Source: Pedosphaera sp.
Lineage (GTDB): Bacteria; Verrucomicrobiota; Verrucomicrobiia; Limisphaerales; SIBH01
Direction of reading: 5' to 3'
Length of the DNA: 19,508 nt
NCBI GenBank assembly: GCA_031414955.1
Contig: JANOQV010000127.1
Coordinates: forward strand, 1-19,508
A model generated the notes under the pieces. That model had not been told where the DNA came from. It was given only the letters and a program-made list of their open reading frames with translations, and did no database searches. Position numbers and translations under genes: made by a program. Positions 2 through 17,945 of this stretch are shown here, piece after piece. The stretch's first letter is position 1; each line of letters opens with the position of its first letter.

Positions 2-1663
2 AGCTACGGCTGCGCGCTCTGGCTGGAGATCGTCCGCGCGACCAACAATGCCAGCAACGTGGTGGTGACGTTGCACAACACCATTCCCGGCACCAATTAC
101 CAGATTCTCAGCAAGACCAATTTGAGCGACACGAACTGGACGGCGGAGACGAACGTCACCGGCGCGGGCGGACAGGACTGGACGGCCGTGAGCGTGCCGA
201 TGAACGGACGCCCCCAGTTGTTCTTCCTCGGCGCGGCCAGCATTTTCGGCATCACCAAGAGTTTCCCCGGCCTGCAATTCACCAACTCGCAGACCAGTGT
301 GCCCGACGCCATGGGCGCAGTCGGGCCGAACCATTACGTCCAGGTATTGAACGCAGAAAGCAACCAGGTCGGGATCGCGGTCTTCGACAAATGTTCCGGC
401 AACTTGCTTCAGTCGGCCACGAACATGGCTTTTTTCCACGTTCAGTATCAGGGCACAAATTTCCCGCCGGGTCAGACCGTTGACCCGCGCGTATTATATG
501 ACCACGAGGCCCAACGCTGGGTGGCGACCATCCTCGACCGGACGAATCGACAAATCCTGCTCGCCATCAGCAAGTCCAGCTCACCGCTCGATCTGATGAC
601 CAACTGGGACAAGTACCTGCTCCCGGTTGCGGTCAGCGGTTTTCTCTCGGATTTTCCAACCCTGGGCCTGGACAAGAACGGCATCTACGTTTCGGTCGGC
701 CATCGGGAGTCGCGGAAAACACCCATTTCCAGCCACACCATTATGGCGCTGAAGAAGCCGGAGATTTACCAGGGCGTGGTGATTTCCAACCCCATCCCCT
801 TCCTCATCTATTCCAACGAACTGCCGGCCACCTCCATTTTCCCGGCGGTGAACTACGATCCAGAACCGCGCGGCGGCTACGCCTGGTTCGTGGCCAATAA
901 GCGGCCCGATCGCTCCAGCACCAACGGTGGTGCGCTGAGCTACCGGCGCATGATATGGACCGGCACCAACGTGGACTGGGCACCGGCGGACTCGAATTGG
1001 GTGGAAGTGGCAAACAGCCCCGTCTACCGCGACTACTTCGACCTCGACAAATCGTACGTCACTGCGCCGCAAGGGCCCGCCGGACTTGAGCTACGGATTT
1101 ATGACACGGGTAGCCGCATCCATTCACTCGTCATCCAGCACGGCAGCCTCTGGGCCTGTCAGCAGATCGGGCTTTCGGGAACAAACGGCCTCTACCCCGG
1201 GCCGGGCGGGAGCACCAACGTGGACCGTTCCGGTGTGCAGTGGTTGCACATCTCGACCGACACCAACGGCGAGTTCCTTTCCCTCACCAACGGGCGCATT
1301 TTCGACCCGACGAACTCCAACCCTTATTACTACTACTGCCCATCCGCGGCGGTGAATCAGTACGGAGACATGGTCGTTGGCTTCAACGGATCTCGGTCGG
1401 GAGAGTATATCCGCGCCTGTTATTGGTGGCGTTCACACACCGGTGCTCAGGCACCTCAGCCGCTGCTCATTCGTGTCGCACAAGACGTGGCCCCATATGC
1501 TGAGTGGGGTGATTACTCGGCGGCCAGCTTGGATCCGATTGATCGACTCCGAATATGGCTTGTCCTTCCCCTGGTCCCGGCTGATCCCATAGTTGAGGGT
1601 CATCCAGATAATCTCTGGGACACTTGGATTGAGGAAATCATCCCCGGTGCTTCCGGTCCGTAA
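2..1663 (+). CDS. Large putative secreted protein of unknown function, paralog 1 (5' truncated by the window edge)
   Basis: The frame is open from base 2 (SYGCALWLEIVRATNNASNVVVTLHNT) and aligns with SYGCALWLDAARSTNNPSNVVVTLHNT of the 2296..4248 paralog, so the GTG at 59 is not the true start. Shared motifs: PDAMGAVGP, DPRVLYD, SDFxTLGxDKNG, WGDYSAASLDP. Confidence 0.85.
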   Translation, partial: SYGCALWLEIVRATNNASNVVVTLHNTIPGTNYQILSKTNLSDTNWTAETNVTGAGGQDWTAVSVPMNGRPQLFFLGAASIFGITKSFPGLQFTNSQTSVPDAMGAVGPNHYVQVLNAESNQVGIAVFDKCSGNLLQSATNMAFFHVQYQGTNFPPGQTVDPRVLYDHEAQRWVATILDRTNRQILLAISKSSSPLDLMTNWDKYLLPVAVSGFLSDFPTLGLDKNGIYVSVGHRESRKTPISSHTIMALKKPEIYQGVVISNPIPFLIYSNELPATSIFPAVNYDPEPRGGYAWFVANKRPDRSSTNGGALSYRRMIWTGTNVDWAPADSNWVEVANSPVYRDYFDLDKSYVTAPQGPAGLELRIYDTGSRIHSLVIQHGSLWACQQIGLSGTNGLYPGPGGSTNVDRSGVQWLHISTDTNGEFLSLTNGRIFDPTNSNPYYYYCPSAAVNQYGDMVVGFNGSRSGEYIRACYWWRSHTGAQAPQPLLIRVAQDVAPYAEWGDYSAASLDPIDRLRIWLVLPLVPADPIVEGHPDNLWDTWIEEIIPGASGP

Positions 1664-1685
1664 CAAACTTCCAACCACCACTGTT

Positions 1686-2270
1686 ATGAGACGATTATTC
1701 TTCCTCGCTTGTTTCGCCAGTCTGCTCGACTTCGCCCACGCTCAAGGACTACTCATTTTTGCCAACAGCAACGCCACGGCCATCACCAATGGGCTGACGG
1801 GATTGCGTGCTCCGGGCGGTCCGGAGCAGGATGATACCTACGTGGGACTCTATGCTGGCAATGTCGGCGATCCCGTTCCCAGCCTTCAACTCGTCGCCGT
1901 CACCAATTGCTTCTCTCCGGGAAGGTTCTCGAAAGGGACGCTCGCGCTGGCAGGCTGGCCAGGAGGTGCCGTGGTCCAGCTTCAAGTTCGGGTCTGGCTG
2001 GCCTCGATTATCTACGCCACTTACGAAGCGGCGCTCGCCGCAGCGTTGGGCGGAGACACCTCGGTGTTGCTCGGCGCTTCCGTGCCGATGTTTGCTCAAC
2101 TTCAAGGAGCAGGAAATCCACCGTTGCCGGTGTCTATGGACGCTTATGGCTTGAACCCTGTGGTCCTCATGCCCATTCCCGAGCCGTCGGAGTGGGCCTT
2201 GGTGGCGGTGGCGATGGGCGCGGCTGTGCTGGCCGGGCGGCGTAAACGCAACCTTCCCCTTCGGCCATGA
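1686..2270 (+). CDS. PEP-CTERM sorting-domain surface protein (194 aa)
   Basis: ATG at 1686 gives a signal peptide MRRLFFLACFASLLDFAHA-QG. The C-terminus IPEPSEWALVAVAMGAAVLAGRRKR is a PEP motif, a TM helix and a basic cluster. Confidence 0.92.
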   Translation: MRRLFFLACFASLLDFAHAQGLLIFANSNATAITNGLTGLRAPGGPEQDDTYVGLYAGNVGDPVPSLQLVAVTNCFSPGRFSKGTLALAGWPGGAVVQLQVRVWLASIIYATYEAALAAALGGDTSVLLGASVPMFAQLQGAGNPPLPVSMDAYGLNPVVLMPIPEPSEWALVAVAMGAAVLAGRRKRNLPLRP

Positions 2271-2295
2271 AACTCGGGCTTACGAAACTGCATTT

Positions 2296-4248
2296 GTGTC
2301 AAAAGTGAGGGCAAACACCTTTTCCGAAACAGCGGTCGCGCGCGGCCGCTCCCAACTCAAGGTCCAGCGCTGCCTTGTCTTTACCATCCTTGGCCTCGCG
2401 CTGGCTGCCACGAGTTCCTTTCCTGTCCGGGCGGCGGAGCAGGCGAAGGCCGGCCCGCAGGAAGCTCTCCTGCTGCTGCTTTACCAAGCCTGGACGAATG
2501 TGATGGCCAAGGTTGCAAACAAACCCACGGCGGAGCAATTGGCGGCGATGAAATCCGCCCGCCAGAATACCGAAAGCGCCAGCAGCCTGGCCACCGTGAG
2601 CGCGGAGAGCTACGGTTGCGCCCTCTGGCTGGACGCGGCCCGCAGCACCAACAACCCGAGCAACGTGGTGGTGACGTTGCACAACACCGTCCCGGCCCTG
2701 AACTACAAGCTCTGGACCAAGACCGTGCTCATGCCCACCCAGTCTTGGACTTTGGAAACGAACGCGGGGGGAACCAGCGGCCAAAACTGGACGGCAGTGA
2801 CGGTGCCCCGGAACGGGCGCGCGAACCTGTTCTTCCTTGGCGGAGCGGGCGGCTTTGGCACGAACAAGAGCTTCGTAGGCTTGCAGCAATCCAACTCCGT
2901 TGCCTCTTTGCCCGATGCGATGGGCGCGGTGGGGCCGCAACACGTCATGCAAGTGTTGAACGTGCTTTCGGGAAAGGTCGGCGTTGCCGTCTTCGACAAA
3001 TGCACCGGCAACCTCATCCAGTCCGCGACGAATGAGGCATTTTTTTCGGTGCAATTCGGAGGAACGAATTATCCGACGGGCCAGACCTTTGACCCGCGCG
3101 TGTTGTATGACCACGAGTCTCAGCGCTGGGTAGCAACCATCCTCGACCGCACCACTCGCCAACTCGTGCTGGCCGTCAGCAAGTCCAGCACGCCGTTGAA
3201 CTTGCTAACGAACTGGGACAAGCACCTTCTTCCCGTCTCTGTCGGTGGTTCGTCCTCGGATTTTGGAACCTTGGGCGTGGACAAGAACGGCCTCTACATC
3301 TCCGTCGCGCAGCAGGACTTGGTGGCAGGAACCATTTCGAGCAACGTGATCGTTACGCTGAAAAAGCCGGAAATATATCAGGGTAACGTTATCTCGAATT
3401 TCTTCCTGACGCATTCCAACGAACTGCCGGCGAGCGCCATTTTCCCGGCTGTAAATTTTGATGCAGAACCACGCGGTGGCTTCGCTTGGTTCGTGGCCAA
3501 GAAGTGGCCCGATCGCACCAGCACGAATCACGGCGGCGTACTCGCCTACCGGAGAATGACCTGGAGCGGAAGCAACACGGCATGGGCGGACACCAACTGG
3601 GTGGAGGTGCCGAACAGCCCAATCTATCGGGACTACTTCGACCTGGACAAATCGGGAGTGACAGCGCCGCAGGGCGTTGAGGCTCCGGCAATTGAGCTTT
3701 ATGGGACGGGCAGTCGATTGATGAGCGCCGTTATCCAAAATGGCAATCTCTGGACGTGTCAGCATGTGGGGCTTTCGGGTACGAACGGTCACTACCCCGG
3801 GCATGGGGGCAGTACAAATGTGGATCGTTCTGGCATTCAGTGGCTTCGAATTGGCACGGACACGAACGGCCAGTTTCTTACGGTGACGAACGGAAGAATC
3901 TTCGATGCAACAAACTCGAATCCTTTTTATTACTACTGTCCTTCACTCATGGTGAATAAAAATGGAGACGCGATTACGGGCTTCAACAGTTCTCGCTCCG
4001 GAGATTACATCCGCGCACTTTACCTTTGGAGGACCAGCCAGGCCGCTCAACCTTTGCAACCGCTTGTCCTGCGAGAGGGTCAAGATATCGCGCAACATGG
4101 TTCGTGGGGGGACTACTCGGCCGCGAGCTTAGACCCAACGGACCGGCTCCGAATTTGGCTGGTTATCCCGTGTGTGCCCTCATCCTCGCTGGATAACGAA
4201 TGGGATACGTGGATAGGAGAAATTGTCCCTGATGAGGTTGCTCCATAA
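2296..4248 (+). CDS. Large putative secreted protein of unknown function, paralog 2 (650 aa, start uncertain)
   Basis: Long ORF with an N-terminal hydrophobic segment (CLVFTILGLALAATSSFPVRA). Colinear with 2..1663 at a DNA offset of about 2606 bp. Rich in N/T/S/G and aromatic residues, consistent with a beta-rich extracellular fold. Confidence 0.88.
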   Translation: MSKVRANTFSETAVARGRSQLKVQRCLVFTILGLALAATSSFPVRAAEQAKAGPQEALLLLLYQAWTNVMAKVANKPTAEQLAAMKSARQNTESASSLATVSAESYGCALWLDAARSTNNPSNVVVTLHNTVPALNYKLWTKTVLMPTQSWTLETNAGGTSGQNWTAVTVPRNGRANLFFLGGAGGFGTNKSFVGLQQSNSVASLPDAMGAVGPQHVMQVLNVLSGKVGVAVFDKCTGNLIQSATNEAFFSVQFGGTNYPTGQTFDPRVLYDHESQRWVATILDRTTRQLVLAVSKSSTPLNLLTNWDKHLLPVSVGGSSSDFGTLGVDKNGLYISVAQQDLVAGTISSNVIVTLKKPEIYQGNVISNFFLTHSNELPASAIFPAVNFDAEPRGGFAWFVAKKWPDRTSTNHGGVLAYRRMTWSGSNTAWADTNWVEVPNSPIYRDYFDLDKSGVTAPQGVEAPAIELYGTGSRLMSAVIQNGNLWTCQHVGLSGTNGHYPGHGGSTNVDRSGIQWLRIGTDTNGQFLTVTNGRIFDATNSNPFYYYCPSLMVNKNGDAITGFNSSRSGDYIRALYLWRTSQAAQPLQPLVLREGQDIAQHGSWGDYSAASLDPTDRLRIWLVIPCVPSSSLDNEWDTWIGEIVPDEVAP

Positions 4249-4271
4249 TAGAACAAACAATTCCTACTAAA

Positions 4272-4805
4272 ATGAAACGAATACTCCTTACGATCATTTG
4301 TCTCACGGGTTTGATCCAAGCTACGCAAGCTCAAGGAGTCTTCGTTTTCTCGAATCCTGGCGCTCGAACGCGTGTCGGCAGCATTGATGGCCCCTACGCA
4401 GGGCCAGGTATTCTCGCCCAGATGCTGCTCGGCCTGACTACGGACAGTTTAACTCCGGTCGGTCTGCCCGTGGCACATCAGGCGGGGACCGGGGGAGTAG
4501 CAGGAGGGACTCTCACTGTTCCGGGAATTCCCGGAAACACATTTGTCTTTGTGCAGATGGTCGTATGGGACCAAACAATCTGGGGTTCATCGCTGAGTGG
4601 GGTGCCTCAACAGTGGCGCGGGTACACGGACATCATACCGCTCGAGTTGTCGTATGCATTTGACCCTCCGTTGATCCCCTTCTTTAACCAAGCCGCCATC
4701 GTGCCGGTGCCGGAGCCGTCGTCCATCGCATTACTTGCGCTGGCGTGCGGCGGCGCGTTGGTCGGTTTGCGGCGGCGCCATCCTGTCCGTTCCGATATGC
4801 GATGA
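4272..4805 (+). CDS. PEP-CTERM sorting-domain surface protein (177 aa)
   Basis: Signal peptide MKRILLTIICLTGLIQATQA-QG and C-terminal VPEPSSIALLALACGGALVGLRRRH. Distant homolog of 1686..2270 (AQGxxxFxN, PG...VxxQxxVW). Confidence 0.93.
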   Translation: MKRILLTIICLTGLIQATQAQGVFVFSNPGARTRVGSIDGPYAGPGILAQMLLGLTTDSLTPVGLPVAHQAGTGGVAGGTLTVPGIPGNTFVFVQMVVWDQTIWGSSLSGVPQQWRGYTDIIPLELSYAFDPPLIPFFNQAAIVPVPEPSSIALLALACGGALVGLRRRHPVRSDMR

Positions 4806-5001: not shown

Positions 5002-5749
5002 TCATGGCTCGAAGTAGAGGAGGAAGCGGGTGAGGAAGTAATCGAAGATCAGGATGAGCACGATGGAGTTGACCACGGCCTTGGTCACGGAGCGGCCGAT
5101 GCCGCGCGGGCCGCCGATGGTTTGCAGTCCTTGCGCGCAGGAGATGATGCCGATGGTGAGCGCAAAGATGAAACTCTTGAACAGTCCGTGGGCCACGTCC
5201 CCAAAATCGACCGTCTGCCGCAGGTTCGAGAAAAACGACGAGTAGCCGATGGCGATCTTCTCATTGGCCGCCGCCACCATGGCACCGCCGAACCAGCCGA
5301 CCAGGATCGAGAACAGCGTGAGCATGGGCAGCGCGGCGCTGATGGCGGTGATGCGCGGCAGAACCAGGTAATGGATGGGGGTAGATGTTCATGGTGCGGA
5401 GCGCGTCGATTTCCTGATAAACGCGCATGGAGCCAATCTCCGCGGCCATGGCCGAGCCGATGCGGCCGGCGATGAGGATGGCCATCATCAAGGGGCCGAG
5501 TTCCTTGGCCATGGCCATGCCCACGCCGCCGCCGATGGAGGTGGACAGGCCGTACTTGGCCAGCAGATTGCCGGTCTGGAGCGAGATCACGCCGCCGATG
5601 AAAAGCGAGAGGACGCAGGCCATGAGCAGGCTGGCGTTGCCAATCTCGAAGAGCTGGTCGAAGAATTTTTGCTTCTGGCGCCAGAGTTTGGGCAGCGCCT
5701 GCAACGTGCGCAGGAACAACACCACCATCTCGCCAATGCTTTGGAACAT
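5002..5749 (-). CDS. mlaE: MlaE/Ttg2B-family ABC transporter permease, split by a +1 frameshift (sequence error or pseudogene)
   Basis: The 5' frame has KELGPLMMAILIAGRIGSAMAAEIGSMRVYQEIDALRTMNI and the 3' frame has GGPRGIGRSVTKAVVNS. Removing one G from the G5 run at 5377-5381 joins them as MNIYPIHYLVLPRITAISAALPMLT. Start placed at ATG 5749 (MFQSIGEM); 5812 is an alternative. Confidence 0.88.
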
Positions 5750-5922
5750 ATCGCCCGCCTGACATATCCGCGCAGGGTCGGGAAAGCTCCCGGTGTGGTA
5801 ATTCTTCTGCATGAGGGCGAGGTGAGCACGGGGCGTTGGCGAAACTTTGACTGGTCAGGCGACTTTGCTACGGTGCGCACTCCATGCGAGCGGATTAAAC
5901 CGGAAGGCATGGCACAACCATT

Positions 5923-6403: not shown

Positions 6404-7141
6404 TCACTCCGGGGAGGCCACTTTCGCTTCCGACTCCGCCCCTCGCGACACCAGCACCACGAATTCTCCCTTGAGTGATCGCTTCCAGGCAATCTCCAGC
6501 AATTGCGCCGGTGTGCCGCGCAGGAACTCCTCGAACTTCTTGGTCAGTTCCCGCGCGAGCACGACGCTGGAGGCGGGAAAAATCTCGCCCAGTTCACCGA
6601 GCAATTTCTCCACCCGGTAAGGTGATTCGTAAAAGACCAGCGTGCCCGGCACGGCGCGCAGCGTCTCCAGTTGCCGTCGGCGCTGGCCTGATTTGACGGG
6701 CATGAAACCCACGAAATGAAATTCCTCCGTGGGCAGTCCGCTGGCCGTGAGCGCGGCCACCAGCGCGCACGGGCCGGGTACAGATTCCACGCGAAAGCCC
6801 GCCGCCAGGGCGGCTTCCACCACGCGCGCACCAGGATCGCTGATGCCCGGCGTTCCGGCATCAGTGACGAGGGCGACTTTCTCGCCGCGCCCGAGGCGAT
6901 CCAGAATCTCCTCACTTCTTTTTGCCTCATTGAAACGAAAATAACTCAAGAGCGGCTTGGAAATGCCGAAGTGTATTAGCAGTTGGCCGGTTCGACGAGT
7001 GTCCTCCGCCGCGACGACATCGGCTTCGCGCAAGGTGCGAAGCGCCCGCAAGGTGATGTCTTCAAGGTTACCGATCGGCGTCGCGACGAGATAAAGCGTC
7101 GCCGACGCGAGCGGGGGCAGAGTCGATTCAGTCGCAGGCAT
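6404..7141 (-). CDS. rsmI: 16S rRNA (cytidine1402-2'-O)-methyltransferase
   Basis: LYLVATPIGNLEDITLRAL, AAEDTRRT, DAGTPGISDPG, FYESPYR, ARELTKKFEE, KGEFVVLV. Confidence 0.97.
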   Translation of the reverse strand: MPATESTLPPLASATLYLVATPIGNLEDITLRALRTLREADVVAAEDTRRTGQLLIHFGISKPLLSYFRFNEAKRSEEILDRLGRGEKVALVTDAGTPGISDPGARVVEAALAAGFRVESVPGPCALVAALTASGLPTEEFHFVGFMPVKSGQRRRQLETLRAVPGTLVFYESPYRVEKLLGELGEIFPASSVVLARELTKKFEEFLRGTPAQLLEIAWKRSLKGEFVVLVSRGAESEAKVASPE

Positions 7142-7196: not shown

Positions 7197-8963
7197 ATGT
7201 TGGGCTTGTTTAAGAGAATCTTGTCGAGAACGTCGGCGTCGCGCTCCGTGGCACCGGTGGTCGAAGCGACCCCTGCGGCCAAGCCAGTCCCCCGGGCTGG
7301 GGCCATTCCTCCGCCGCGGATGCCGCCACTGCGGGTCAATACCACTCCGCCCACACCCGCGCCGCGCCCTGTCGCTTCTTCGCCGGATGGCAGCACGCAT
7401 GTGCAAGTGGCGCTGGCGGCGATTGCCGGGAGCCTGCCCGACGCGTTGCGCCACAAGGTGCCGGCCGCAGCGGATCAATATGTTTCCATCCCGGTGGACC
7501 GGGTGCTCTCGCAACTGGCTTATGGCAGCGTGCAATTGAGCGCGGGTGAACTCCGGGCCTGCGCGCCCGAACATTTCAGCGCCCTGGTTGGTTCAGATGA
7601 TGTGCAGGTGAGTCTGCCGCTGGCCGATGTGCTGCCACAGTTGTCGCCGCAACAATATGCGCGCCGGCCTCAGCACAAAGTGGAAATCCCGGAAGATGTA
7701 GCCTCCGTTTTCGCGGCCGGTGGCGGCGGCCCAAGCGGGATCCGACCCACTCCGGCCCAGCCCGTGCCCCAGGTGCGCCCCCAAGCCACGGTCACCATGA
7801 CTACGCCCCAGCAACCGGTGGCACCGTCGGCTCCGACCTCCGGATCGCCGAAGATTTCCATGTCGCCGCAGGCACTGGCGGCGCTGCGGGCCAAGGTTCC
7901 CATGCCTTCGACCGCTCCGCTCCCCGCACGCCCGAACGGTCTCGCGCCTCAGCGTCCGGTGGCCCCTGCTCCGGCGGTCGCCACGCCCTTGCCAGTGGCC
8001 CCAAGCACCCCGGCTCCACGGAAAACAACTCCTGATTTTATCAAGCCGACCGGTCATTTGGCCGTGCCGCTGGGCCAGGTTTGCCCCGAATGGGTGCGGG
8101 AAGTTCGCGCGCAGTTGGAGGACGTGGATGTGGAGAATTCCCAAATCCTCGTCCCGCTTGAATTCCTCGAACCGGCCATGAAAAGCGGCAAGCCGCTCTT
8201 CAGTTGGGCGGAAGTGGCATCGTGGATTCAACCAGCCCTGTCCAGTCCTCCCACGGCCAAGGTCGGCGAAATGCCGGTGGAGCTTCCGCTCAAAGTGGTC
8301 GCACCCTTGTTCATGGCCCTGCATCGCGGTGCGGTGCAGAAAAAGGCGGCGGTGGATCAAACCATCCCCGATGTGTTCGGCAACACCAACGGCAGCGCCA
8401 ACGGTGGCAACGGCCACGCTGCTCCGGCGGCTGCTCCGGCGGCCCCGGCAGCCTTCACGGCCCCGCCCTCGGCCGTTCCATCACGTTCCGTCACGCCGGC
8501 AACTCCGACCAGCCCAGCGCCCAACGTCTCTCGAATGACCTCGCTTTCCGCGCCCACACTGCCGCCGGACGAGCCAGTCATTTCCTTGGAATCCATCATC
8601 GGTGGCGAAGGAGCCAGGTTCTCGGTGAAGGAAATCGTGGTCAACGCCTCGCGCCTGCCTGGCGCGGCGGGCGCGCTCCTCGCCATGAGCGACGGGCTGC
8701 TCGTCACGAGCCAAACCCCGCCGAACGTGAAGGGCGAAACCATCGCCGCGTTCCTGCCCCAGATGTTTGGCCGCATGAATCAATACACCAAGGAACTCGC
8801 GCTGGGACCTCTCCAGCAACTCACGCTCGGCGTGGCCGGCGGCCAGTGGCACGTCATCAAATGCGAGACCATCTATTTTGCCGTGCTCGGCAGGCCCGGC
8901 GAATCACTCCCACTTAACTTGCTCGCTCAAGTTGCCGCTGAATTGAGCAGTCAATCGAACTAG
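7197..8963 (+). CDS. Pro/Ala-rich multidomain protein with two copies of an unknown ~85-aa domain and a C-terminal Roadblock/LC7 (MglB-like) domain
   Basis: ATG 7197 (MLGLFKRIL) follows AAAGAAAGG and avoids overlap with rsmI. The C-terminal LPGAAGALLAMSDGLLVTSQ...ETIAAFLPQMF...ELALGPLQQLTL is a Roadblock pattern. Ends 5 bp before mglA. Confidence 0.82.
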   Translation: MLGLFKRILSRTSASRSVAPVVEATPAAKPVPRAGAIPPPRMPPLRVNTTPPTPAPRPVASSPDGSTHVQVALAAIAGSLPDALRHKVPAAADQYVSIPVDRVLSQLAYGSVQLSAGELRACAPEHFSALVGSDDVQVSLPLADVLPQLSPQQYARRPQHKVEIPEDVASVFAAGGGGPSGIRPTPAQPVPQVRPQATVTMTTPQQPVAPSAPTSGSPKISMSPQALAALRAKVPMPSTAPLPARPNGLAPQRPVAPAPAVATPLPVAPSTPAPRKTTPDFIKPTGHLAVPLGQVCPEWVREVRAQLEDVDVENSQILVPLEFLEPAMKSGKPLFSWAEVASWIQPALSSPPTAKVGEMPVELPLKVVAPLFMALHRGAVQKKAAVDQTIPDVFGNTNGSANGGNGHAAPAAAPAAPAAFTAPPSAVPSRSVTPATPTSPAPNVSRMTSLSAPTLPPDEPVISLESIIGGEGARFSVKEIVVNASRLPGAAGALLAMSDGLLVTSQTPPNVKGETIAAFLPQMFGRMNQYTKELALGPLQQLTLGVAGGQWHVIKCETIYFAVLGRPGESLPLNLLAQVAAELSSQSN

Positions 8964-8968
8964 TTCCT

Positions 8969-9589
8969 ATGGCCATCATTAACCAAGCAACCAAAGAGCT
9001 GCAGGTCAAAGTCGTCTTCTACGGCCCCGCGCTCGGTGGTAAAACCACCAACTTAGTCCAGGTCCACGAACATGTGCAGACCCAGGAAGGGCAGAAGGGC
9101 AAGCTCGTCTCCCTCGCCACCTCCTCGGACCGCACCCTCTTCTTTGACTTCCTCCCCATCGAGGCCGTCGCCATCAAGGGGTTCAAGACCAAGTTCCAGC
9201 TCTACACCGTGCCTGGCCAGGTCATCTACAACACCACGCGGCAACTCGTGCTGCGCGGGGTGGATGGCATCGTCTTCGTGGCCGACTCCCAGTACGACAA
9301 GATGGAGGACAACGTGAAGAGCTTTCAGAACTTGGAGGAGAACCTCAAGACCCTCGACATCGACATGGACGAGATTCCTTACGTGCTCCAGTACAACAAG
9401 CGCGACCTGCCCAACGCGGCGCCCATGGAATACATGGAGTTTCTGCTCAACAACCGCGAGGTCCAGGCTCCGTCTTTCGGGGCCAGCGCCCACAAGTGCA
9501 ACGGCGTGTTCGAGACCCTGAACATGATCACGCGCATGCTCCTCCACAAGTTCATCAACGAGAGCAACCGGGTGAAGCAGCTTGTCTAA
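8969..9589 (+). CDS. mglA: MglA-family small GTPase
   Basis: P-loop YGPALGGKTTN, switch I DRTLFFDFLP, FQLYTVPGQV, DGIVFVADSQ, G4 QYNKRDLP. Confidence 0.96.
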   Translation: MAIINQATKELQVKVVFYGPALGGKTTNLVQVHEHVQTQEGQKGKLVSLATSSDRTLFFDFLPIEAVAIKGFKTKFQLYTVPGQVIYNTTRQLVLRGVDGIVFVADSQYDKMEDNVKSFQNLEENLKTLDIDMDEIPYVLQYNKRDLPNAAPMEYMEFLLNNREVQAPSFGASAHKCNGVFETLNMITRMLLHKFINESNRVKQLV

Positions 9590-9606
9590 ACCCTTGCGCC
9601 AACCTT

Positions 9607-10089
9607 ATGGGCCTGCCCCAATTAATCGCGGAGGACGTGCGGGAACTGGATCGGCTGCTCGGTGATCTGGTGACGCGCAGCGAGGCCATTGCCGCCCTGG
9701 TCATCGACAAGGCCGGCTTCCTCATCAGCCACTCGGGCGACACCAGTAAGTTCGACGCCACCACCCTGGCGGCCCTCGCCGCCGGCTGTTTCGCCGCCAC
9801 GCAGGGCATGGCCTCGGTGGTCAACGAGCCGAACTTCAACAGCGTCTATCAGCAGGGCGAGCTTTACAGCCTGCTCGTGCAAAACGTCGAGTTCGACACG
9901 CTGCTCATGGTCGTCTTCGCCGCCCAGGTCAGCGTGGGCGCGGTAAAATACTTTGCCAACTCCGCCGCGCCGCAGGCCGCGCGACAGTTCGAGAAGGCCC
10001 GATTGCGCGCGCCGGGCAAGACTCTCGATCTGGCCCGGATGAACCTGGAGAACAGCTCCGAGTTCTTCCGCAAGGTGGCCCAGCATTAG
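9607..10089 (+). CDS. mglB: MglB-family Roadblock/LC7 protein (putative GAP for MglA), 160 aa
   Basis: ATG at 9607. ALVIDKAGFLISHSG, DATTLAALAAGCFAATQGMA, EPNFNSVYQQGE, LMVVF and SVGAVK parallel Myxococcus MglB. Adjacent to mglA. Confidence 0.9.
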   Translation: MGLPQLIAEDVRELDRLLGDLVTRSEAIAALVIDKAGFLISHSGDTSKFDATTLAALAAGCFAATQGMASVVNEPNFNSVYQQGELYSLLVQNVEFDTLLMVVFAAQVSVGAVKYFANSAAPQAARQFEKARLRAPGKTLDLARMNLENSSEFFRKVAQH

Positions 10090-10210: not shown

Positions 10211-10615
10211 ATGAAAGTTGGCCAACTCCTGCACACCCGCTACCGGGTGAACGACCTCGAACAGTCGGTGAATTTCTACCTTCAAGTGCTGGGCCTGGAA
10301 GAAGTGCGCCGCCACAAGTCACCCCGCGGATCGGAACTGGCCTTCCTGAAAGCACCGGGCAGTGAGGAACTGATTGAGCTCTGCTATTTCCCCTCCAGCG
10401 GCCCCGTGCAGGTACAACCCGACCTCACGCACCTCGCCTTCGAGGTCACCAGTCTGGAAGAATTTGGCCGGCACCTCGCCGCGCACGGCCTGAAATACTC
10501 CGACGGCCCAACCTACAAGGAAGACGGCGGCGGTTTTGCCTTCATTGACGCGCCCGAAGGCTATGAGGTCGAATTGATTCAGCGCGGGCTAAAACCAGGC
10601 ACCGGCGGGGCCTAA
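10211..10615 (+). CDS. VOC-family protein (glyoxalase I / lactoylglutathione lyase-like)
   Basis: LLHTRYRVNDLEQSVNFY...LGL, IELCY, HLAFEV, FIDAPEGYEVELI; the H/E/H/E metal-ligand pattern is present. Confidence 0.9.
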   Translation: MKVGQLLHTRYRVNDLEQSVNFYLQVLGLEEVRRHKSPRGSELAFLKAPGSEELIELCYFPSSGPVQVQPDLTHLAFEVTSLEEFGRHLAAHGLKYSDGPTYKEDGGGFAFIDAPEGYEVELIQRGLKPGTGGA

Positions 10616-10664
10616 ACCAAACGAACCAGCGCGCCGCCCGGGCTTTGGTCACTCGCCTCACGGT

Positions 10665-10698
10665 CGAACCGCGCGGGCATTGAGGTTCGCGCGGTTCG
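10665..10698. terminator. GC-rich hairpin between convergent genes (possible terminator or RNA-stabilising stem)
   Basis: cgaaccgcgcg (10665-10675) and cgcgcggttcg (10688-10698) form a perfect 11-bp inverted repeat; there is no U-tract. Confidence 0.45.
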
Positions 10699-10727
10699 TC
10701 AGTCGGCCACGTTCCCCACCGCCGCCG

Positions 10728-11552
10728 CTACGGACGCAACGGCGGCTCCCGGCGGTGAAATGGACGGTAGAGTTTCACCGCGTTGTTCCAGACCTGAGGC
10801 CAGAAATTCCCTTCGCGGGCGAAGACTTCGCGGAGCGGTTGCTGCCGGTAGGCGGCGATGAAGCGCAGCAAATCGCGCCGCGTGAGCCCCGCATCCAGAG
10901 CCGAAAACAACAGCCCGCCCAAATCCTTGACCAGCCAGCGCTCGGGAACCCGGTCCCGCCTTTGCACTCGGTGCAGATCGATGAGCGTGAGATCAACCGC
11001 GTCGCCTGGTTTCCATTTCGACCAGTCCCGATCGCGGACAAGAAAGTGGCACAGATAGAAGTCCCGATGATTGAGTCCCGCGCCGTGCATGCGCCTCGCG
11101 AGGTCCGCGATGTGCCGGAGCAAGGCGCGCTGCAACAACACGCGGTTCCTTCCCGTCGCACCCCGCCAGTCGCTGGTCAGTTCTTCGAGTGAGATCATTC
11201 CCTCCAGCGCGGGCATCACGATGAAGGATTCGAGGTTCGCGGGCGAGAAGCCGCGCAGTCCCTTGCCGGCGACGCCGGCTGTGGCGACGCCGACTGTGTT
11301 CAAAGACTCGATGGCGCGCCATTCCGGCTCGGCACTGACGATGGGGGCGCGACCGTAGAGCAAATTCTTGAACACCTCGCCCCAGCCCACGCCGCGGTGA
11401 GCCTTGATGAAGTAGCGCCGGCCCGCGACCTCGAACTCGATGGTGCGCCGGTTCTTGACCGCGCGATGCACCTGGCCTTCCACGGCCATCAGCTTGTCGA
11501 AGGTGTTTTCCTTCGGCAGATGCGCGCGGAGATGTTCGTCGAGTTCGAGCAC
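10728..11552 (-). CDS. waaP: Lipopolysaccharide core heptose(I) kinase
   Basis: RRYFIKAHRGVGWGEVFKNLL, NHRDFYLCHFL, LIDLHR, KDLGGLLFSALD; directly downstream of waaG. Confidence 0.92.
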   Translation of the reverse strand: MLELDEHLRAHLPKENTFDKLMAVEGQVHRAVKNRRTIEFEVAGRRYFIKAHRGVGWGEVFKNLLYGRAPIVSAEPEWRAIESLNTVGVATAGVAGKGLRGFSPANLESFIVMPALEGMISLEELTSDWRGATGRNRVLLQRALLRHIADLARRMHGAGLNHRDFYLCHFLVRDRDWSKWKPGDAVDLTLIDLHRVQRRDRVPERWLVKDLGGLLFSALDAGLTRRDLLRFIAAYRQQPLREVFAREGNFWPQVWNNAVKLYRPFHRREPPLRP

Positions 11553-11566
11553 GCAGGGAGTTTAGC

Positions 11567-11595
11567 CACGGATGGAATGCGGATGGAACACGGAT
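11567..11595. repeat. 11-bp tandem repeat, about 2.6 copies
   Basis: cacggatggaa tgcggatggaa cacggat in the waaG-waaP gap. Confidence 0.6.
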
Positions 11596-11608
11596 AAGTA
11601 GAAGGCGG

Positions 11609-12745
11609 TCATCGTGCGGCTATTTTTCGCGCGATCACTGATTCGATGACTTCCACCGCGCGCTGGTGGCAACTGTAGAGGTCTTCGCGCGCGGCGTAGC
11701 CGACGCCGTTTGCGCTCCACGCGGCGCGTTCCGTGGAGTCCAACATCTCCCGGACAGCGGTATCGCTGGCCACCTGATCAAATGGCGCGGCGAGCAGACG
11801 TCCGGCCTGAGCACGTTGGAGGTGAAAGGCGTAACCGCAAACATCCGTGGCTAGCACAGGCAGTCCGGCGGTGAGTGCTTCAAGCAGAATCATGCCGGCG
11901 GCTTCGCTGCGGGCCGGATGCACAAGCAGATCCGAGGCGAGCAGCCAGTCGAAGACGTCATCGCGCCCGCCGAGGAAATGCACGCGGTCGCTCACGCCCA
12001 GCTTGCGCGCGAGCAGCTCAAACTCCGTCGGACGGTTTTGTCCGATGACGACCAGTCGCGTTTGACTGCGCTGCGCTTCGGCCAGCGCAGCCAGCGAGCG
12101 AATGGCGCGGTCGAGTCCCTTCACGCGAAAACCCGAACCGGCGAGCAGCAGCAACTTCTCATCATCCGGCCAGCCGTGCTCGCGCCGCAGCCGGGCGCGC
12201 GTCTGCTGCTTCTGCTCCGACGTGAAGGCACGGCGTTCGATGCCAGGCGGCAGGACGTGGAAGCGTGCGCGCTCGGTGCCGTAGAATTCCTGGTAGCGCG
12301 GAATCTCCTGCTCGGTCAGCACCAGCACCTGTGCCTTGCTTCCTTTGGCAAACACGCTTTCCTCCAATTCCTTGAAGTGCCGGTAGCGCGGCAGCCACTT
12401 GTAGTAGAAGGATTTCAACCGCTCCACCTTGGCCGCATAACACGGATCGGAGCCGTAATACACGTCCACGCCGGGCAACTTGTTGAAGCCGATGATGCCG
12501 TCGAGCCCGCGCTGGGGCAGCGCGTCGGCCAGCAGCTTCAGCCAGGCGCGGTTGCGCGCCACATTGCTCGCGCCCTGCCGGCCGAAAAGCTCGACCTGCA
12601 TTCCAGACGGCCGCTCTCCCTGCCAGGTACGCGTGAAGATGGTGACGTCGTGCCCGCGCGCCGCGCAAAGCCGGGCGATCTTCAGACAGTCGCGTTGCAG
12701 CCCGCCGAAGGGGAAGTAGTCGAAGAGCAGGAAACCGAGTTTCAT
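11609..12745 (-). CDS. waaG: GT4 glycosyltransferase, LPS core glucosyltransferase type
   Basis: ATG 12745 overlaps the GT2 stop (ATGA). MKLGFLLFDYFPFGGLQRD, GFNKLPGVDVYY, GSGFRVKGLDR, HPARSEAAGMILLEA. Confidence 0.9.
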   Translation of the reverse strand: MKLGFLLFDYFPFGGLQRDCLKIARLCAARGHDVTIFTRTWQGERPSGMQVELFGRQGASNVARNRAWLKLLADALPQRGLDGIIGFNKLPGVDVYYGSDPCYAAKVERLKSFYYKWLPRYRHFKELEESVFAKGSKAQVLVLTEQEIPRYQEFYGTERARFHVLPPGIERRAFTSEQKQQTRARLRREHGWPDDEKLLLLAGSGFRVKGLDRAIRSLAALAEAQRSQTRLVVIGQNRPTEFELLARKLGVSDRVHFLGGRDDVFDWLLASDLLVHPARSEAAGMILLEALTAGLPVLATDVCGYAFHLQRAQAGRLLAAPFDQVASDTAVREMLDSTERAAWSANGVGYAAREDLYSCHQRAVEVIESVIARKIAAR

Positions 12746-13530
12746 GCGGCGGGAAGTTCCACGGAATAAAGTGACGGTGCGAGCGCGCGGACCCAGCGAA
12801 TCCAGCGGATGCGCTGGCGCATCGCGGCGGGCCAACCAGGATTCGTTTCGGCCAGCAGCGCCTTCTCCCGCTGCCAGCGATCGCTTTGCCGCGCGGCGAC
12901 TGAGATGGACTGCGGATTGCGTGTGTAAAGATAGAGTACCTTGGGAATCAGCCCGACGCGCCGCCCGCCCGACGCCACGCGGCCCCAGAATTCCTTGTCG
13001 CCCGCGATCTGGAAGCGCTCATCGAACCAGCCCGCCGTCGCGCTTAACTCGCGCCGCCAGGCTGCGAACGGCCCGGGCCTTGTGCTCAACGGCAGCCGCG
13101 CGGCGCGCGCCCAGTCGTCCCCATGCTCGTCCATCGGCTGCTTGGCGATGAGCACGGTGCAGGCGTCCCAGCGCTCGCGCTCCATCGCCGTCCCGACTTG
13201 TTCCAACAGTCGCGGATGCATGGCGTCGTCCATGTTCGAGTAGCAGACGAGCGGCGCACGCGCCTCGCGCCAGCCGATGTTCCACGCCTCGTAAAGTGAC
13301 TTGCGTTCGTCGCTCGCGAGCAGGCGGCAGTGGGAATGTTCCCGACAAAAGGGCGCGAAGAGTTCGCGTTCACGTTCGGGTGAGGCTGTTTCGATGAAGA
13401 GAAATTCGGCGCGGTCAAACCACGTTTGCGCCCGGACTTCCGCCAGCTTCTTAGCCACAAAGCGCGCGTTGTTATAGCAACTGATGAGGACTGAGATGCG
13501 CGGCGATGCGGTCACGACGCGAGAGTGCAA
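12742..13530 (-). CDS. GT2-family glycosyltransferase (start uncertain)
   Basis: ISVLISCYN, LYEAWNIG, YSNMDD (DxD-like), FDERFQIAGDKEFWGR. Confidence 0.88.
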   Translation of the reverse strand: MHSRVVTASPRISVLISCYNNARFVAKKLAEVRAQTWFDRAEFLFIETASPERERELFAPFCREHSHCRLLASDERKSLYEAWNIGWREARAPLVCYSNMDDAMHPRLLEQVGTAMERERWDACTVLIAKQPMDEHGDDWARAARLPLSTRPGPFAAWRRELSATAGWFDERFQIAGDKEFWGRVASGGRRVGLIPKVLYLYTRNPQSISVAARQSDRWQREKALLAETNPGWPAAMRQRIRWIRWVRALAPSLYSVELPAA

Positions 13531-13736
13531 GAGTTCGCGCCGGGCGAGTCAATTCCGAATCGTGCTGAAAGCAGGTTAAGGCGCGCTGGGGAAGTGCCAC
13601 CGGACTGCAACCGTCGGCTTAAACCGTGGGGTGTTCTCGGCCGCGACTCCGGCGCTGCACTCGAAAACCGACCGTGGCGAGAAACTGCGGGATGGCACGC
13701 ACGGTTTCGCGATCCTTCTCCTTTTCACGCTCGGGC

Positions 13737-13862
13737 ATGCGCATCGCCCTCGCCGACCTCAAACTCGACGAACTGCGCGTCGTCTATCCCGGCACGAAAC
13801 GCTACGCGCTGGCAAAGAAAGTCGAGGTCGTCCCGCTGGCGGAATTGGTGAAGGCGAACTGA
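13737..13862 (+). pseudogene. Orphan 3' tail of an AAA-ATPase/DUF4143-type protein
   Basis: MRIALADLKLDELRVVYPGTKRYALAKKVEVVPLAEL resembles the C-terminus of that family as I recall it; no upstream ATPase frame is present. Confidence 0.6.
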
Positions 13863-13865
13863 ACA

Positions 13866-13904
13866 GCCCGTTCGGAGTTCGTTGCGGATTTGGCGGACAT
13901 CCTC
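13866..13904 (-). pseudogene. Very short piece resembling the first helix of a bacterial TIR domain
   Basis: Translates EDVRQIRNELRTG, the segment expected just before the GHxPLLFFLKCL stretch found at 14.7 kb and 15.6 kb. Only 13 codons. Confidence 0.4.
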
Positions 13905-13909
13905 CGCGG

Positions 13910-14159
13910 CCAAAGGCCCAGCAACAAGCCAGCCCAAGGCAACGCCCTGGGTCACGGATATTGAAAAAACCCAAGCCCCAACGGGGCGACACAAATCGCG
14001 GTTCACACCGGGCGAACGTCGGGCGTCGGATGGCACGATCGCGGTGCGCACGTTTGAACGTCATCGTATCGGTTGTGCCGCCCTTTCACGGCTTGGCGGT
14101 GTGGCCGGCCATGAACCCCAAGGCGTTGCCCTGAGTTGGCTTGGGGGACGCACCTTTGG
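13910..14159. repeat. Nested-palindrome REP/REPIN-like element
   Basis: Outer arms 13910-13951 and 14117-14159 (inner 27 nt match 23/27; each arm carries its own cccaaggc-NNN-gccct hairpin). Inner arms 13973-13994 and 14073-14094. Confidence 0.8.
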
Positions 14160-14235
14160 CGCTGGGAGAACGGAGGAGCAATGCTGTTCCGGACCGACCG
14201 CTCAGTCGGAGCTATGGCGATGAAAACCTCAATGG

Positions 14236-14367
14236 ACACCGCAGAGGCGGGATGAGCGCAGAGCCGAAAGGCTTTTGTTGCAGCAAGAATCTGCCTCACT
14301 GCTTGGTGAACTTGCCCATCACGCGCCATGCGTCTTTTACTCTGCGCCCGTCCCGCCTCTGCGGTGT
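14236..14367. repeat. Inverted repeat element with 28-bp arms
   Basis: acaccgcagaggcgggatgagcgcagag (14236-14263) vs ctctgcgcccgtcccgcctctgcggtgt (14340-14367): 26/28 complementary. Confidence 0.85.
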
Positions 14368-14421
14368 GAAGTTCCGTCGGCAAATCCCCTTCTTTCGAGG
14401 TTTCATGTCTGACCGGTTTTC

Positions 14422-14487
14422 TGACAAACGAATGGGTGTCAGACGAATCCACGCCGAAAAATTCGACTGACACTCATTCGTTTGTCA
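14422..14487. repeat. Inverted repeat with 27-bp arms and a 12-nt loop
   Basis: tgacaaacgaatgggtgtcagacgaat (14422-14448) vs attcgactgacactcattcgtttgtca (14461-14487): 25/27 complementary. Confidence 0.85.
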
Positions 14488-14718
14488 ATGAACTGGGTAA
14501 GCGAGATCCATCACCGCGACCGTCTGGCGCGGTCGCTGCGTGACTTGTTTGACCAGTTCAATCTCCTGCTTCACCCATTTTGAACGTCGCGAAGCGCGGG
14601 TGTTGCAGAGAACAAAAAATGTTCTGGCTTTGATTTCATCGCGGATGAGTTCGGGCCGGCGCGCGTCGTCCGCTTCCAGGCACTTGAGGAAAAACAGCGG
14701 TGGTTCGTGTCCGCCCTG
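14485..14718 (-). pseudogene. TIR-domain gene fragment, copy 1 (no start codon, 77 codons)
   Basis: Manual translation QGGHEPPLFFLKCLEADDARRPELIRDEIKARTFFVLCNTRASRRSKWVKQEIELVKQVTQRPRQTVAVMDLAYPVH*. Shows the TIR pattern IxxEI...FFVLC.S..S.WV..E. Confidence 0.75.
14539..14691. repeat. Direct repeat, copy 1 (partner 15415..15560)
   Basis: Core 14575-14691 matches 15444-15560 at 115/117 nt; weaker similarity continues on both sides. Confidence 0.95.
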
Positions 14719-14722
14719 AACC

Positions 14723-15142
14723 TCAAACCGCCGTTGCCAACTGACTCAGAAAATCCGCAGGCGTGATGGCGGGCACGGGCGATCCGGCGAAGTCGCCCGC
14801 ATTCCGCGTGATGATGAAAACCGATTCCGTTGCCTTCGCTACAGTCGCCACCACCGCGTCCTCAAAATCCGCGAACGGGAGACGCCTCGCGTCCTGCCAG
14901 CCAGCCGCTTCGAGATTTCCGATTTGAAAATGGCGCAGCACCTGATCCATCGCGGCCTCGGCCTCCGGTTTGGAGGCGTGTTTGCGCACGAGATAGTAGA
15001 GCGTCGTCAGCCCGTGGGCCGGGCATACACCGGCCAGTGTCCCCGCCGTGACCATGCTCACCACTTGCGCGGACGCCGCGTAGTGTGGCTCACGCTTTTG
15101 GAAGACATCCAGAAACACGTTGATGTCCAACGTGACCTTCAC
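14723..15142 (-). CDS. PIN-domain protein (VapC-like toxin)
   Basis: 139 aa with TLDINVFLD, DFEDA and ITRNAGDF; GTG start overlaps the upstream stop by 4 nt. Confidence 0.92.
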   Translation of the reverse strand: MKVTLDINVFLDVFQKREPHYAASAQVVSMVTAGTLAGVCPAHGLTTLYYLVRKHASKPEAEAAMDQVLRHFQIGNLEAAGWQDARRLPFADFEDAVVATVAKATESVFIITRNAGDFAGSPVPAITPADFLSQLATAV

Positions 15143-15369
15143 GCGTGCTTCTTTTCGAGATGTTCACGGTGTATTTCCTCGCCCGCGACCTCCGGCGAGA
15201 TGATGCCGGCGGCCTTCATCACATCGGGTTGCAGCGGCCTCTGCAAATGCTCGCGCAAGTTGCGCGCCTGCCGCGCGAGGAACGCCTCCGCCGAAGTCCC
15301 TTGTGCCGCTGAATAGGCGCGGAGGAAGGTGAAGTCTTCATCTGGCAACGGAATTGTGAGCGTGCTCAT
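15139..15369 (-). CDS. Putative antitoxin (76 aa)
   Basis: Small ORF coupled to the PIN gene. N-terminal STLTIPLPDE...LRAYSAAQGTS is ribbon-helix-helix-like; ends HREHLEKKH. Confidence 0.8.
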   Translation of the reverse strand: MSTLTIPLPDEDFTFLRAYSAAQGTSAEAFLARQARNLREHLQRPLQPDVMKAAGIISPEVAGEEIHREHLEKKHA

Positions 15370-15414
15370 GGCTTAATAATGTCACACGACCGCACCGCTG
15401 CCAAGCCCACGCTT

Positions 15415-15594
15415 CGTGACTTGTTTGACGCGTTCAATTTCGTCCATTTTGAACGGCGCGAAGCGCGGGTGTGGCAGAGAACAAAAAATGTTCTGGCTTT
15501 GATTTCATCGCGGATGAGTTCGGGCCGGCGCGCGTCGTCCGCTTCCAGGCACTTGAGGAACGAACAGGAGCGGATTGTGCCCACCCCGTTTTTC
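15415..15594 (-). pseudogene. TIR-domain gene fragment, copy 2 (two frameshifts); includes direct repeat copy 2 (15415..15560)
   Basis: EKRGGHNPLLF, then one extra base at 15561, then FLKCLEADDARRPELIRDEIKARTFFVLCHTRASRRSKW, then a 7-nt deletion relative to copy 1, then EIERVKQVT. Confidence 0.72.
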
Positions 15595-15602
15595 CCAGTG
15601 CG

Positions 15603-15761
15603 TCAGACGGTGCCCGCGACCTGTCCGCCCGCCGTCTGCGCCAGCTCGGCCAGTTCCTCCAACGAATCCTGCACGTCCCAGGCGGTGCGGTTCTTGAGTT
15701 CCACGCCGATGAGGAAGACCCGTTCGGTCCGGCGATTGGCGGTTTCGATGAGTGCTCTCAA
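15603..15761 (-). pseudogene. hflX: 5' fragment (52 codons) of GTPase HflX
   Basis: TTG start, MRALIETANRRTERVFLIGVELKNRTAWDVQDSLEELAELAQTAGGQVAGTV*. ERxxLxGV...SLEELxxLAxTAG is the HflX N-terminal signature. Too short for the ORF track. Confidence 0.8.
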
Positions 15762-15888
15762 TTATTTCTGTGCAGGGACGAACTGGCCTCCATTCAATTC
15801 TCGTGGCGCGCAGGATAACACAAAGGCGCGGGTGGGGAAGTTTGTTGTGCAGCCGGTGCCCCCTCCGTGACCAAGGTGGCAGCCGCGT

Positions 15889-17079: not shown

Positions 17080-17145
17080 ACGGCTGGCATTGAACTCCAC
17101 CCCGCGTCGGCTCGCAAGCGTCTGCTTTCCGCCGGGCCTTGCTTT

Positions 17146-17293
17146 GAAAATAGCCCAGCGCTTGAGCGCTGGGTTCGAGGCGCCTTCCAGCCCATCCAGT
17201 CCCGCCGGGACGAAAGAAAAGTCTGTCGTCCCTGACGGGACTGGGCGGGTTCATCGTGGCGTGGACCCAGCCATGAATGGCCGGGCTATTCTC
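17146..17293. repeat. Nested-palindrome REP/REPIN-like element
   Basis: Outer arms gaaaatagcccagcgcttgagcgctggg (17146-17173) and cccagccatgaatggccgggctattctc (17266-17293). Inner arms ccagtcccgccgggacgaaaga (17196-17217) and tctgtcgtccctgacgggactgg (17222-17244). Confidence 0.82.
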
Positions 17294-17418
17294 AGGAGGA
17301 CAGCCCCCGAAACCAGCCCGGCACCGAGGTCATTTACATGGATTTACGCCCATGTTTCCCCAGAGGCACCCCGCAAGCCACTCCGCCACCGACTAATCCT
17401 TAAATGACTGTTTTAATG

Positions 17419-17628
17419 GATGTTACGAGGCTGAATGGGGTACCTAAAAGGTACCCATTGGATGCTTTGAGGTAACCCGTCAATCCTTCGAGGTACCCCG
17501 GCGATACTTTTAGGTGCCAAGCCGAACCTTCGAGGTTCCCGGCCGATGCTTTGAGCTCCCGGCACCCACCTCAAAGCATCCCCGCCGACTCTCAAAGGTT
17601 CGGCGGCGATCCTCTGGGGATCGACGGG
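17419..17628. repeat. Degenerate 21-bp tandem array, 10 units, many with a 15-bp internal palindrome
   Basis: Units start at 17419, 17440, 17461, 17482, 17503, 17524, 17545, 17566, 17587 and 17608. Examples: gtacct-aaa-aggtac, gaacct-tcg-aggttc, gatcct-ctg-gggatc. Confidence 0.75.
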
Positions 17629-17945
17629 GACTGTCGCAGGTGGCGGTGCTCACCTCGGAGCATCCCCAGCGATGCATTTGGGCGGCGGCACCCCGCTCAA
17701 AGAATCGGCCGCGCGGTCCTGTTTTAGTTCGCATCCGGACGGCCATCGGTGCTTGGCCACAGTTGCTTCGGAACCATTGAGCGACGGGCGAACGGCCATC
17801 GTATGTCGCCGGACTGGCGCGACAAATGGCCCAATAAAGGGTCAGCCGAGGGAGCAAATGATCCGTTTGGAGTTCCGTGTTCCCAGGCTGGGGCGCGCGC
17901 CGGGGCTGGACGGGGACACGACGTTGGCGCGTTACGTTCTGGCAG

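Follow-up and report, generated by a model that had tools for sequence, protein, structure and literature searches.

Known MglA systems

What is understood of polarity control by MglA-type GTPases comes from Myxococcus and a few other bacteria, where the link from the GTPase to the pilus motor is scattered. The polarity module of Myxococcus xanthus contains MglA, MglB, MglC, RomR/RomX and RomY, with SgmX and PilB as its output, and RomR has low-complexity linkers between its interaction modules. A module of this kind is encoded at positions 7197 to 10089 of a 19,508-nucleotide stretch of Pedosphaera sp. DNA (the window), in which a large adaptor or scaffold gene is followed by mglA and mglB. 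The MglA/MglB module with its multi-domain scaffold is real and vertically inherited, and it probably positions type IV pilus assembly via a PilB-type motor, without a Che/Frz pathway.

MglA goes through a GTP cycle with MglB as its GTPase-activating protein (GAP), according to the available part of PMC10329633, and the available part of PMC13408092 reports that MglB is a GAP as well as an exchange factor for guanine nucleotides (GEF). MglA-GTP recruits SgmX, a tetratricopeptide repeat (TPR) protein, and SgmX in turn delivers PilB to the pole, by a step that is called unknown in the accessible portion of PMC11580455. Group 1 and Group 5 MglA proteins with PATAN neighbors and two Roadblock proteins are described in PMC4316618 (Wuichet and Sogaard-Andersen 2014). 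In the text and three supplement files covered from that study, PATAN neighbors of mglA are occasional, the only MglA given for Verrucomicrobia is the Group 5 protein of Methylacidiphilum, and the fusion to a repeat domain seen here is absent. The sections available from PMC11135422 name the phylum Verrucomicrobia for GYF domains only, and those from PMC11596606 predict twitching pili without flagella for a Chthoniobacteraceae genome. No published description of this module was found in the open-licence PMC and bioRxiv literature. Within that literature no publication was found on the scaffold, its domain or the lineage, while the switch is of a known kind.

The operon and its conservation

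The three genes are tightly packed on the forward strand. The large gene (7197..8963, 588 amino acids) is separated by 5 bp from mglA (8969..9589, 206 amino acids), and 17 bp lie between mglA and mglB (9607..10089, 160 amino acids), which confirms the tight operon of the initial annotation. The order of the large gene, mglA and mglB differs from that in M. xanthus. The ORF finder gives another start for the large open reading frame (ORF), an ATG at 7140. The ATG at 7197 is taken as the start because the one at 7140 overlaps the start of an opposite-strand gene and because the homologues begin at the equivalent of MLGLFK. Each gene is present in one copy in the genome. The G+C content at third codon positions is 0.883 for mglA and 0.875 for mglB, compared to a genome median of 0.73. 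Only 0.24% of the 4231 filtered long ORFs reach 0.883, so the strong bias of mglA towards codons ending in C or G was correctly noted. The closest loci carry the titles Pedosphaera sp. and Limisphaerales, which places the module, as proposed, in a non-myxobacterial lineage of Limisphaerales/Pedosphaera-type Verrucomicrobiota. A promoter scan gave no sites, and predicted terminators were no better than chance. In the RNA runs, 5-7% of words were present. RNA contigs from relatives at 80% identity span the large gene and mglA (X4 record 28) or mglA and mglB (X1 record 5, X4 record 32), and they do not demonstrate a single transcript for all three genes.

The large gene and mglA are found together in the order and beyond it. 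The own-order set contains 96 distinct loci (the best 80 of 572 mglA matches plus 20 of 28 relatives, minus four duplicates) and is biased towards this order. A gene-neighborhood survey, which the initial annotation had proposed, found the large gene directly upstream of mglA at all 93 loci where 400 bp or more of upstream sequence is available; in three it is split by frameshifts. The mglB gene is downstream of mglA at all 92 testable own-order loci. The repeat domain of the large protein and mglA are present in the same 29 of 41 genomes. In a sample of the phylum, the repeat domain occurs in 17 of 300 other genomes, and 14 of the 17 have mglA on the same stretch. With a broader profile, 34 of the 121 genomes from another class contain the domain. 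The MglA tree (59 rows) largely tracks taxonomy.

MglA is a Group 1 GTPase. It aligns with M. xanthus MglA (E 4e-61) with an insertion of two residues, so that R55 and Q84 correspond to the catalytic R53 and Q82, as the initial annotation had stated, and neither residue varies among the 109 aligned homologues. Group 1 is defined here by the criteria in the available part of PMC4316618. The protein has an intrinsic arginine beside the G2 threonine (R55-T56, invariant in 109 of 109), like the arginine finger of M. xanthus MglA, and invariant G1, G3 and G4 motifs (G19..G24-K25-T26, T80-V-P-G-Q84 and N143-K-R-D146), and mglB is within four genes of it, 17 bp downstream. MglB has a Robl_LC7 domain (PF03259) above the Pfam cut-off (E 5e-9). 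Its top eight matches among PDB sequences are all MglB (best E 4e-14), and its C-terminal extension aligns with the tail of M. xanthus MglB. It falls below the cut-off of the NCBIfam equivalog NF052242 (64.3 versus 200 bits). The short name of that model suggests a Thermus-centered family, so that the miss would limit the label rather than the likeness to MglB. With the full catalytic signature of MglA and a Roadblock whose nearest kin are MglB proteins, GTP cycling by MglA with MglB as the predicted GAP follows from Myxococcus and Thermus.

The large protein

The large protein is built like beads on a string, in which flexible linkers join two copies of an unannotated folded domain to each other and to a Roadblock. 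Three domains are modeled with confidence, at amino acids about 66-160, 285-380 and 460-588, with a predicted local distance difference test score (pLDDT) of about 95, while confidence is low in the linkers between them and the predicted template modeling score is 0.37. Proline makes up 14.5% of the protein and is concentrated in three Pro/Ala-rich linkers with 22-29% proline. The initial annotation of a Pro-rich disordered scaffold holds for these linkers, which form 38% of the chain; the protein is not mainly disordered, as about 60% is folded in the three domains. It resembles RomR in its long low-complexity linkers between interaction modules, a feature shared with the M. xanthus module as a whole. 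However, the proposed RomR-like role is not supported, since there is no receiver domain (Pfam gives Robl_LC7 only, NCBIfam gives nothing, and the model shows none), and the folded 60% of the chain consists of domains that RomR lacks, including two copies of an unannotated domain. Among 120 homologues the copy number of this domain is two in 108, three in 8 and one in 4 partial sequences. Unlike in M. xanthus, the second Roadblock is fused to these two domains and to an N-terminal amphipathic helix. The helix (7197..7229, forward strand, amino acids 1-11) is basic and is a predicted membrane tether. It appears at amino acids 4-9 of the model, and the hydrophobic moment of the N-terminus is 0.65, compared to a background median of 0.24. 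The basic amphipathic motif is present in 80 of the 111 homologues of at least 500 amino acids (0.9 after shuffling), by a pattern composed after the data had been seen.

The repeat domain has no match in fold searches. Copy 1 (7392..7721, forward strand, amino acids about 66-175) has four beta-alpha units and a conserved I/V-P-x-x-F tail, with pLDDT of 92-97 across amino acids 71-150. Conserved residues of the large protein include Q106, L107, G110, D134 and R156. Copy 2 (8049..8384, forward strand, amino acids about 285-396) is homologous to it (hhalign probability 98.6, E 5.7e-16), and the domain measures about 90-110 amino acids. A profile search against PDB sequences gave no matches at E 10, and no Pfam family is common to more than three of 138 members. 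The structure searches used copy 2 modeled alone (pLDDT 82.8). Foldseek gave no match to PDB or viral structures at E 0.001, and the best VIA match in PDB has a Z score of 3.0 with a root mean square deviation (rmsd) of 5.5 over 76 aligned residues; as a search with one copy against PDB this is not proof of a new fold. An Atlas search returned only Verrucomicrobiota hypothetical clusters, with scores below 0.9. Among 20 loci taken from another class, 6 encode a standalone protein of 130-160 amino acids with a single core, so the domain is autonomous. These six (L243-L248) have no mglA within the fetched stretch. Three are arranged head to head with genes that resemble response regulators, one of which is confirmed as a sigma-54 activator.

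The C-terminal domain is a Roadblock, as the initial annotation had recognized. The Roadblock/LC7 domain (8616..8960, forward strand, amino acids about 474-588) matches Robl_LC7 above the Pfam cut-off at amino acids 478-564 (E 6e-7), and Foldseek also finds a match (E 1e-7). By VIA it matches Asgard Roadblock 3 (Z 17.2, rmsd 2.1, 115 aligned), and MglB scores Z 15.1. MglC (PDB 7cy1; PMC10329633) ranks 26th with Z 10.1, below MglB and the Asgard Roadblocks, and the search of PDB sequences contains no MglC row. The structure is therefore nearer to Asgard Roadblocks and MglB than to the MglC to which it had been likened. MglC differs further in being a standalone protein of about 120 amino acids; the likeness that remains is that each is an additional Roadblock next to MglB and plausibly serves as an adaptor, not as the GAP. 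Helix alpha-2 has a conserved P-Q-x-F-x-R signature with bulky residues (P521 in 116, Q522 in 113 and R526 in 101 of 117 sequences), corresponding to A/S, G and A in MglB, in a register taken from a weak profile alignment (probability 0.8). On this alignment, the difference from the small residues of MglB favors a putative adaptor over a second canonical GAP. The positions of MglB A64 and G68, which we take to have a functional role, vary among these MglBs, and the comparison has no discriminating power. The large protein and MglB are the only two Pfam-detectable Roadblock proteins in the genome. An apparent Roadblock-MglA fusion at locus L072 was rejected as a frameshift.

Links to a probable pilus motor

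In a sister order the module is joined to a probable pilus motor gene. A search of 81 genomes of this order detected mglA in 40. At 23 of 39 loci, from five families, genes for TPR-MshEN, pilB, the large protein, mglA and mglB lie in this order on one strand, and pilB adjoins the large gene at two more. Of the remaining loci, six (family f93) have the large gene and mglA only, four (f94) have the own-order layout, three are second mglA copies and one stops at a contig edge. In M. xanthus the motor is not co-encoded in this way, but the likely output, a TPR protein and PilB, is the same. The linked ATPase has MshEN and T2SSE domains with Walker A and B motifs. Its MshEN cyclic di-GMP motif is borderline (40.2 and 34.3 bits with a cut-off of 38), so control by cyclic di-GMP is not claimed. 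Pilin-like genes lie opposite the operon at six sister-order loci, and pilins near the operon resemble Verru_Chthon cassette and pseudopilin models. In the other class, 14 loci carry the large gene; mglA, mglB and pilB are consecutive at 2 of them, and a gene with an MshEN tail directly follows the large gene at 3. At one locus (L234, genome G392), mglA lacks the catalytic motifs and the scaffold is reduced to one repeat, and both are still downstream of TPR-MshEN and pilB. Another degenerate version, at L041 (genome G022), is a long-branch copy.

The motor pair also tracks mglA where it is unlinked. In the source genome the TPR-MshEN/pilB pair is on a different contig (C56) from the mglA operon, and its PilB clusters with the operon-linked PilBs (bootstrap 99), separate from four paralogues. 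The pair is unlinked in this order, and in 21 high-quality genomes TPR-MshEN and mglA occur together in 15, neither in 4, TPR-MshEN alone in 2 and mglA alone in none. In the sister order their presence is concordant in 15 of 16 families, f93 being the exception. Co-occurrence with type IV pilus genes had been suggested earlier as a check; for pilT it is uninformative. The source genome also has pilM, pilC-type, pilT and mreB genes. Flagellar and chemotaxis genes were not found in it, and neither CheW nor FliG was found (95.9% complete; the control was positive in 8 of 14). The lack of a detected CheW is a further difference from the M. xanthus module, as is a scaffold without a receiver domain.

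In this order, a REC-PATAN operon (REC, receiver domain) accompanies the module. It contains a REC-DUF4388 (PATAN) gene and genes for proteins of 107 and 136 amino acids, and it is divergent from the large gene at 60 of the 72 own-order loci with at least 2.5 kb of upstream sequence; 11 of the 72 have no part of it. The source genome has an intact copy away from the window (C14:38808-40594). The phosphorylatable aspartate is retained in 65 of 68 rows, and in the other class 9 of 14 loci have a DUF4388 gene as neighbor. Outside its own family, the gene for the 136-residue protein tracks mglA (both 20, neither 6, mglA only 1; n=27); within the family it occurs in six genomes where mglA was not found, five of them less than 90% complete. 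PatA-type (PATAN-REC) regulators of PilB1 in cyanobacteria similarly use PATAN/DUF4388 and a receiver as signal input to the pilus motor. PATAN (= DUF4388) binds PilB1 and PilC in Synechocystis, according to the accessible part of bioRxiv 10.1101/2021.06.11.447907. In contrast to these regulators, the domain order here is REC-PATAN followed by an extra C-terminal domain, and the protein is tied to the MglA module and not to a chemosensory cluster. With hhalign, the 107-residue protein and the REC-PATAN C-terminus have Roadblock probabilities below 8; the Atlas match of the former to LAMTOR5/Roadblock (0.88-0.89) is a lead only.

Several variants of this operon were seen. At L227, L228 and L230 (f94) the two small genes are fused to encode one protein of about 240 amino acids. 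The mglA copies of these loci nest within the own-order clade (100/99), which suggests a possible transfer of the cluster. In G012:C341 and G013:C104, homologues of the 136-residue gene have internal TAG stops, reflecting either decay or recoding; mglA was not found in that genus, whose genomes are 57-85% complete. Two more proteins of the source genome (G000 C12:77656-78741 and C301:7982-9193) match the first 250 positions of the REC-PATAN profile.

Proposed function and alternatives

The module is probably a GTPase system that positions type IV pilus assembly through a PilB-type motor. The polarity-type role proposed in the initial annotation is backed, for type IV pili, by the gene order in relatives, and its three components are present, although the module extends past three genes and past the window. 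MglA would cycle GTP with MglB as its GAP. The N-terminal helix may tether the large protein to the inner membrane, and the Roadblock may dimerize and dock the MglA/MglB cycle while not itself acting as another canonical GAP, like MglC. The repeat domains could be protein-binding modules that collect MglA-GTP or motor partners in one patch, and pili would then form at one site. Gene order and co-occurrence suggest that the output would be the MshEN-PilB ATPase with TPR-MshEN as adaptor, the role of SgmX in Myxococcus. Because CheW and FliG were not found, we infer that, in this order, the phosphorylatable REC-PATAN protein and its two small partners supply the input instead of a Frz pathway. 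Across the phylum, the switch and scaffold are co-encoded, in relatives together with the motor and TPR adaptor, which narrows reconstitution to a small set of named proteins. The module also yields an autonomous domain without a match in fold searches, and it points to spatially controlled pili in the abundant but little-studied Verrucomicrobiota of soil and freshwater.

Several observations weigh against a role in pilus positioning. All of the functional links are guilt by association; the related genomes are not independent, and much of the co-occurrence is physical linkage. In this genome and the 96 own-order loci, pilB is not among the conserved neighbors. The linked ATPase falls below the cut-offs for both PilB (TIGR02538, 631 versus 675.65 bits) and GspE (615 versus 630.25 bits), so the machine might serve secretion or DNA uptake. 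Nearly all relatives (40 of 41) carry pilT, also the ones that lack mglA, and pili therefore do not need the module. The large gene is found without mglA in the fetched stretch at 3 of 17 distant loci, and the standalone repeat-domain proteins have no mglA nearby. Finally, the large gene and mglA persist in family f93, where searches detected no mglB in any of 4 genomes and no TPR-MshEN in any of 7, which is a poor fit with an obligatory role as an MglB or PilB adaptor.

The f93 pattern fits better with a direct link between scaffold and MglA than with an MglC-like one. The large protein could be a direct regulator or effector of MglA, as an alternative GAP or GEF or as an MglA-GTP receptor, and be able to work without MglB. 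The Roadblock structure, nearer to MglB than to MglC, agrees with this, and in f93 the operon persists with an intact mglA. The bulky alpha-2 residues argue against it, on the same weak alignment, and so does mglB at every testable own-order locus. This wiring has perhaps a minor chance of being correct, and it can coexist with a pilus output. Family f93 also has a second mglA lineage (L231-L233), flanked on one side by a DUF4388-like gene and on the other by a pilin-like gene, after which comes an ATPase-like gene, with no mglB or scaffold.

A wider combination of ideas is unlikely to hold as a whole. In it, the large protein would be a single-chain, membrane-tethered polarity landmark of Verrucomicrobiota, and the repeat would represent a new fold for recognizing MglA-GTP or holding on to PilB. 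Together with MglB, the LAMTOR5-like neighbor and the REC-PATAN C-terminus, it would form a multi-Roadblock, Ragulator-like membrane platform, and a built-in helix-hairpin-helix (HhH) domain in other classes would tie pilus assembly to the nucleoid. This HhH (PF12836, HHH_3) is of the ComEA type and is inserted before the Roadblock in other-class homologues, where 10 of 12 scanned are above the cut-off. It is absent from 120 of 120 close homologues, the protein from the window included, and from 5 of 5 distant homologues of the same class.

The same HhH bears on a reading in which the GTPase-to-motor wiring is unchanged and the machine is a competence pilus or a type II-like secretion system, so that the module would time DNA uptake or secretion rather than set polarity. 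The intermediate scores of the ATPase, the pseudopilin-like neighbors and the lack of a detected CheW also suit it. However, the HhH is seen only in other-class homologues, and the protein that bears it has cytoplasmic partners, whereas ComEA acts outside the inner membrane. No competence gene was seen as a conserved neighbor, and this reading is improbable. Least probable of all is a positioning system unrelated to pili, for a nucleoid-referenced division site or other structure, in which the linkage to pilB would be a co-option specific to the lineage: a DNA-binding-type HhH in other classes, the lack of an adjacent pilB in this order and the f93 module without detected TPR-MshEN speak for it, but PilB, MshEN or PATAN neighbors recur in three lineages with differing gene orders, and no division or segregation gene is among the conserved neighbors.

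Other genes of the window

Upstream of the module, a tetrapyrrole-methylase family gene (6404-7141, reverse strand), presumably RsmI-like, is head to head with the large gene at a distance of 55 bp, in place of the REC-PATAN operon. This neighbor is seen at seven loci. Downstream, positions 10211-19499 encode a glyoxalase, a Kdo/WaaP kinase, two glycosyltransferases, a PIN-domain protein, a WD40 protein and MutL, and none of these genes is conserved as a neighbor of the mglA module at the loci examined. An ORF at 5085-5812 (reverse strand), which we take to resemble an MlaE-type permease, seems to switch frame about midway. Two long, visibly similar proteins without a Pfam family are encoded at 59-1663 and 2296-4248 (forward strand), and each is followed by a small exported-looking protein (1593-2270 and 4272-4805, forward strand). 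The product of 4272-4805 passes as PEP-CTERM, and that of 1593-2270 has a similar terminal motif. These gene pairs (59-4805) look like a tandem duplication.

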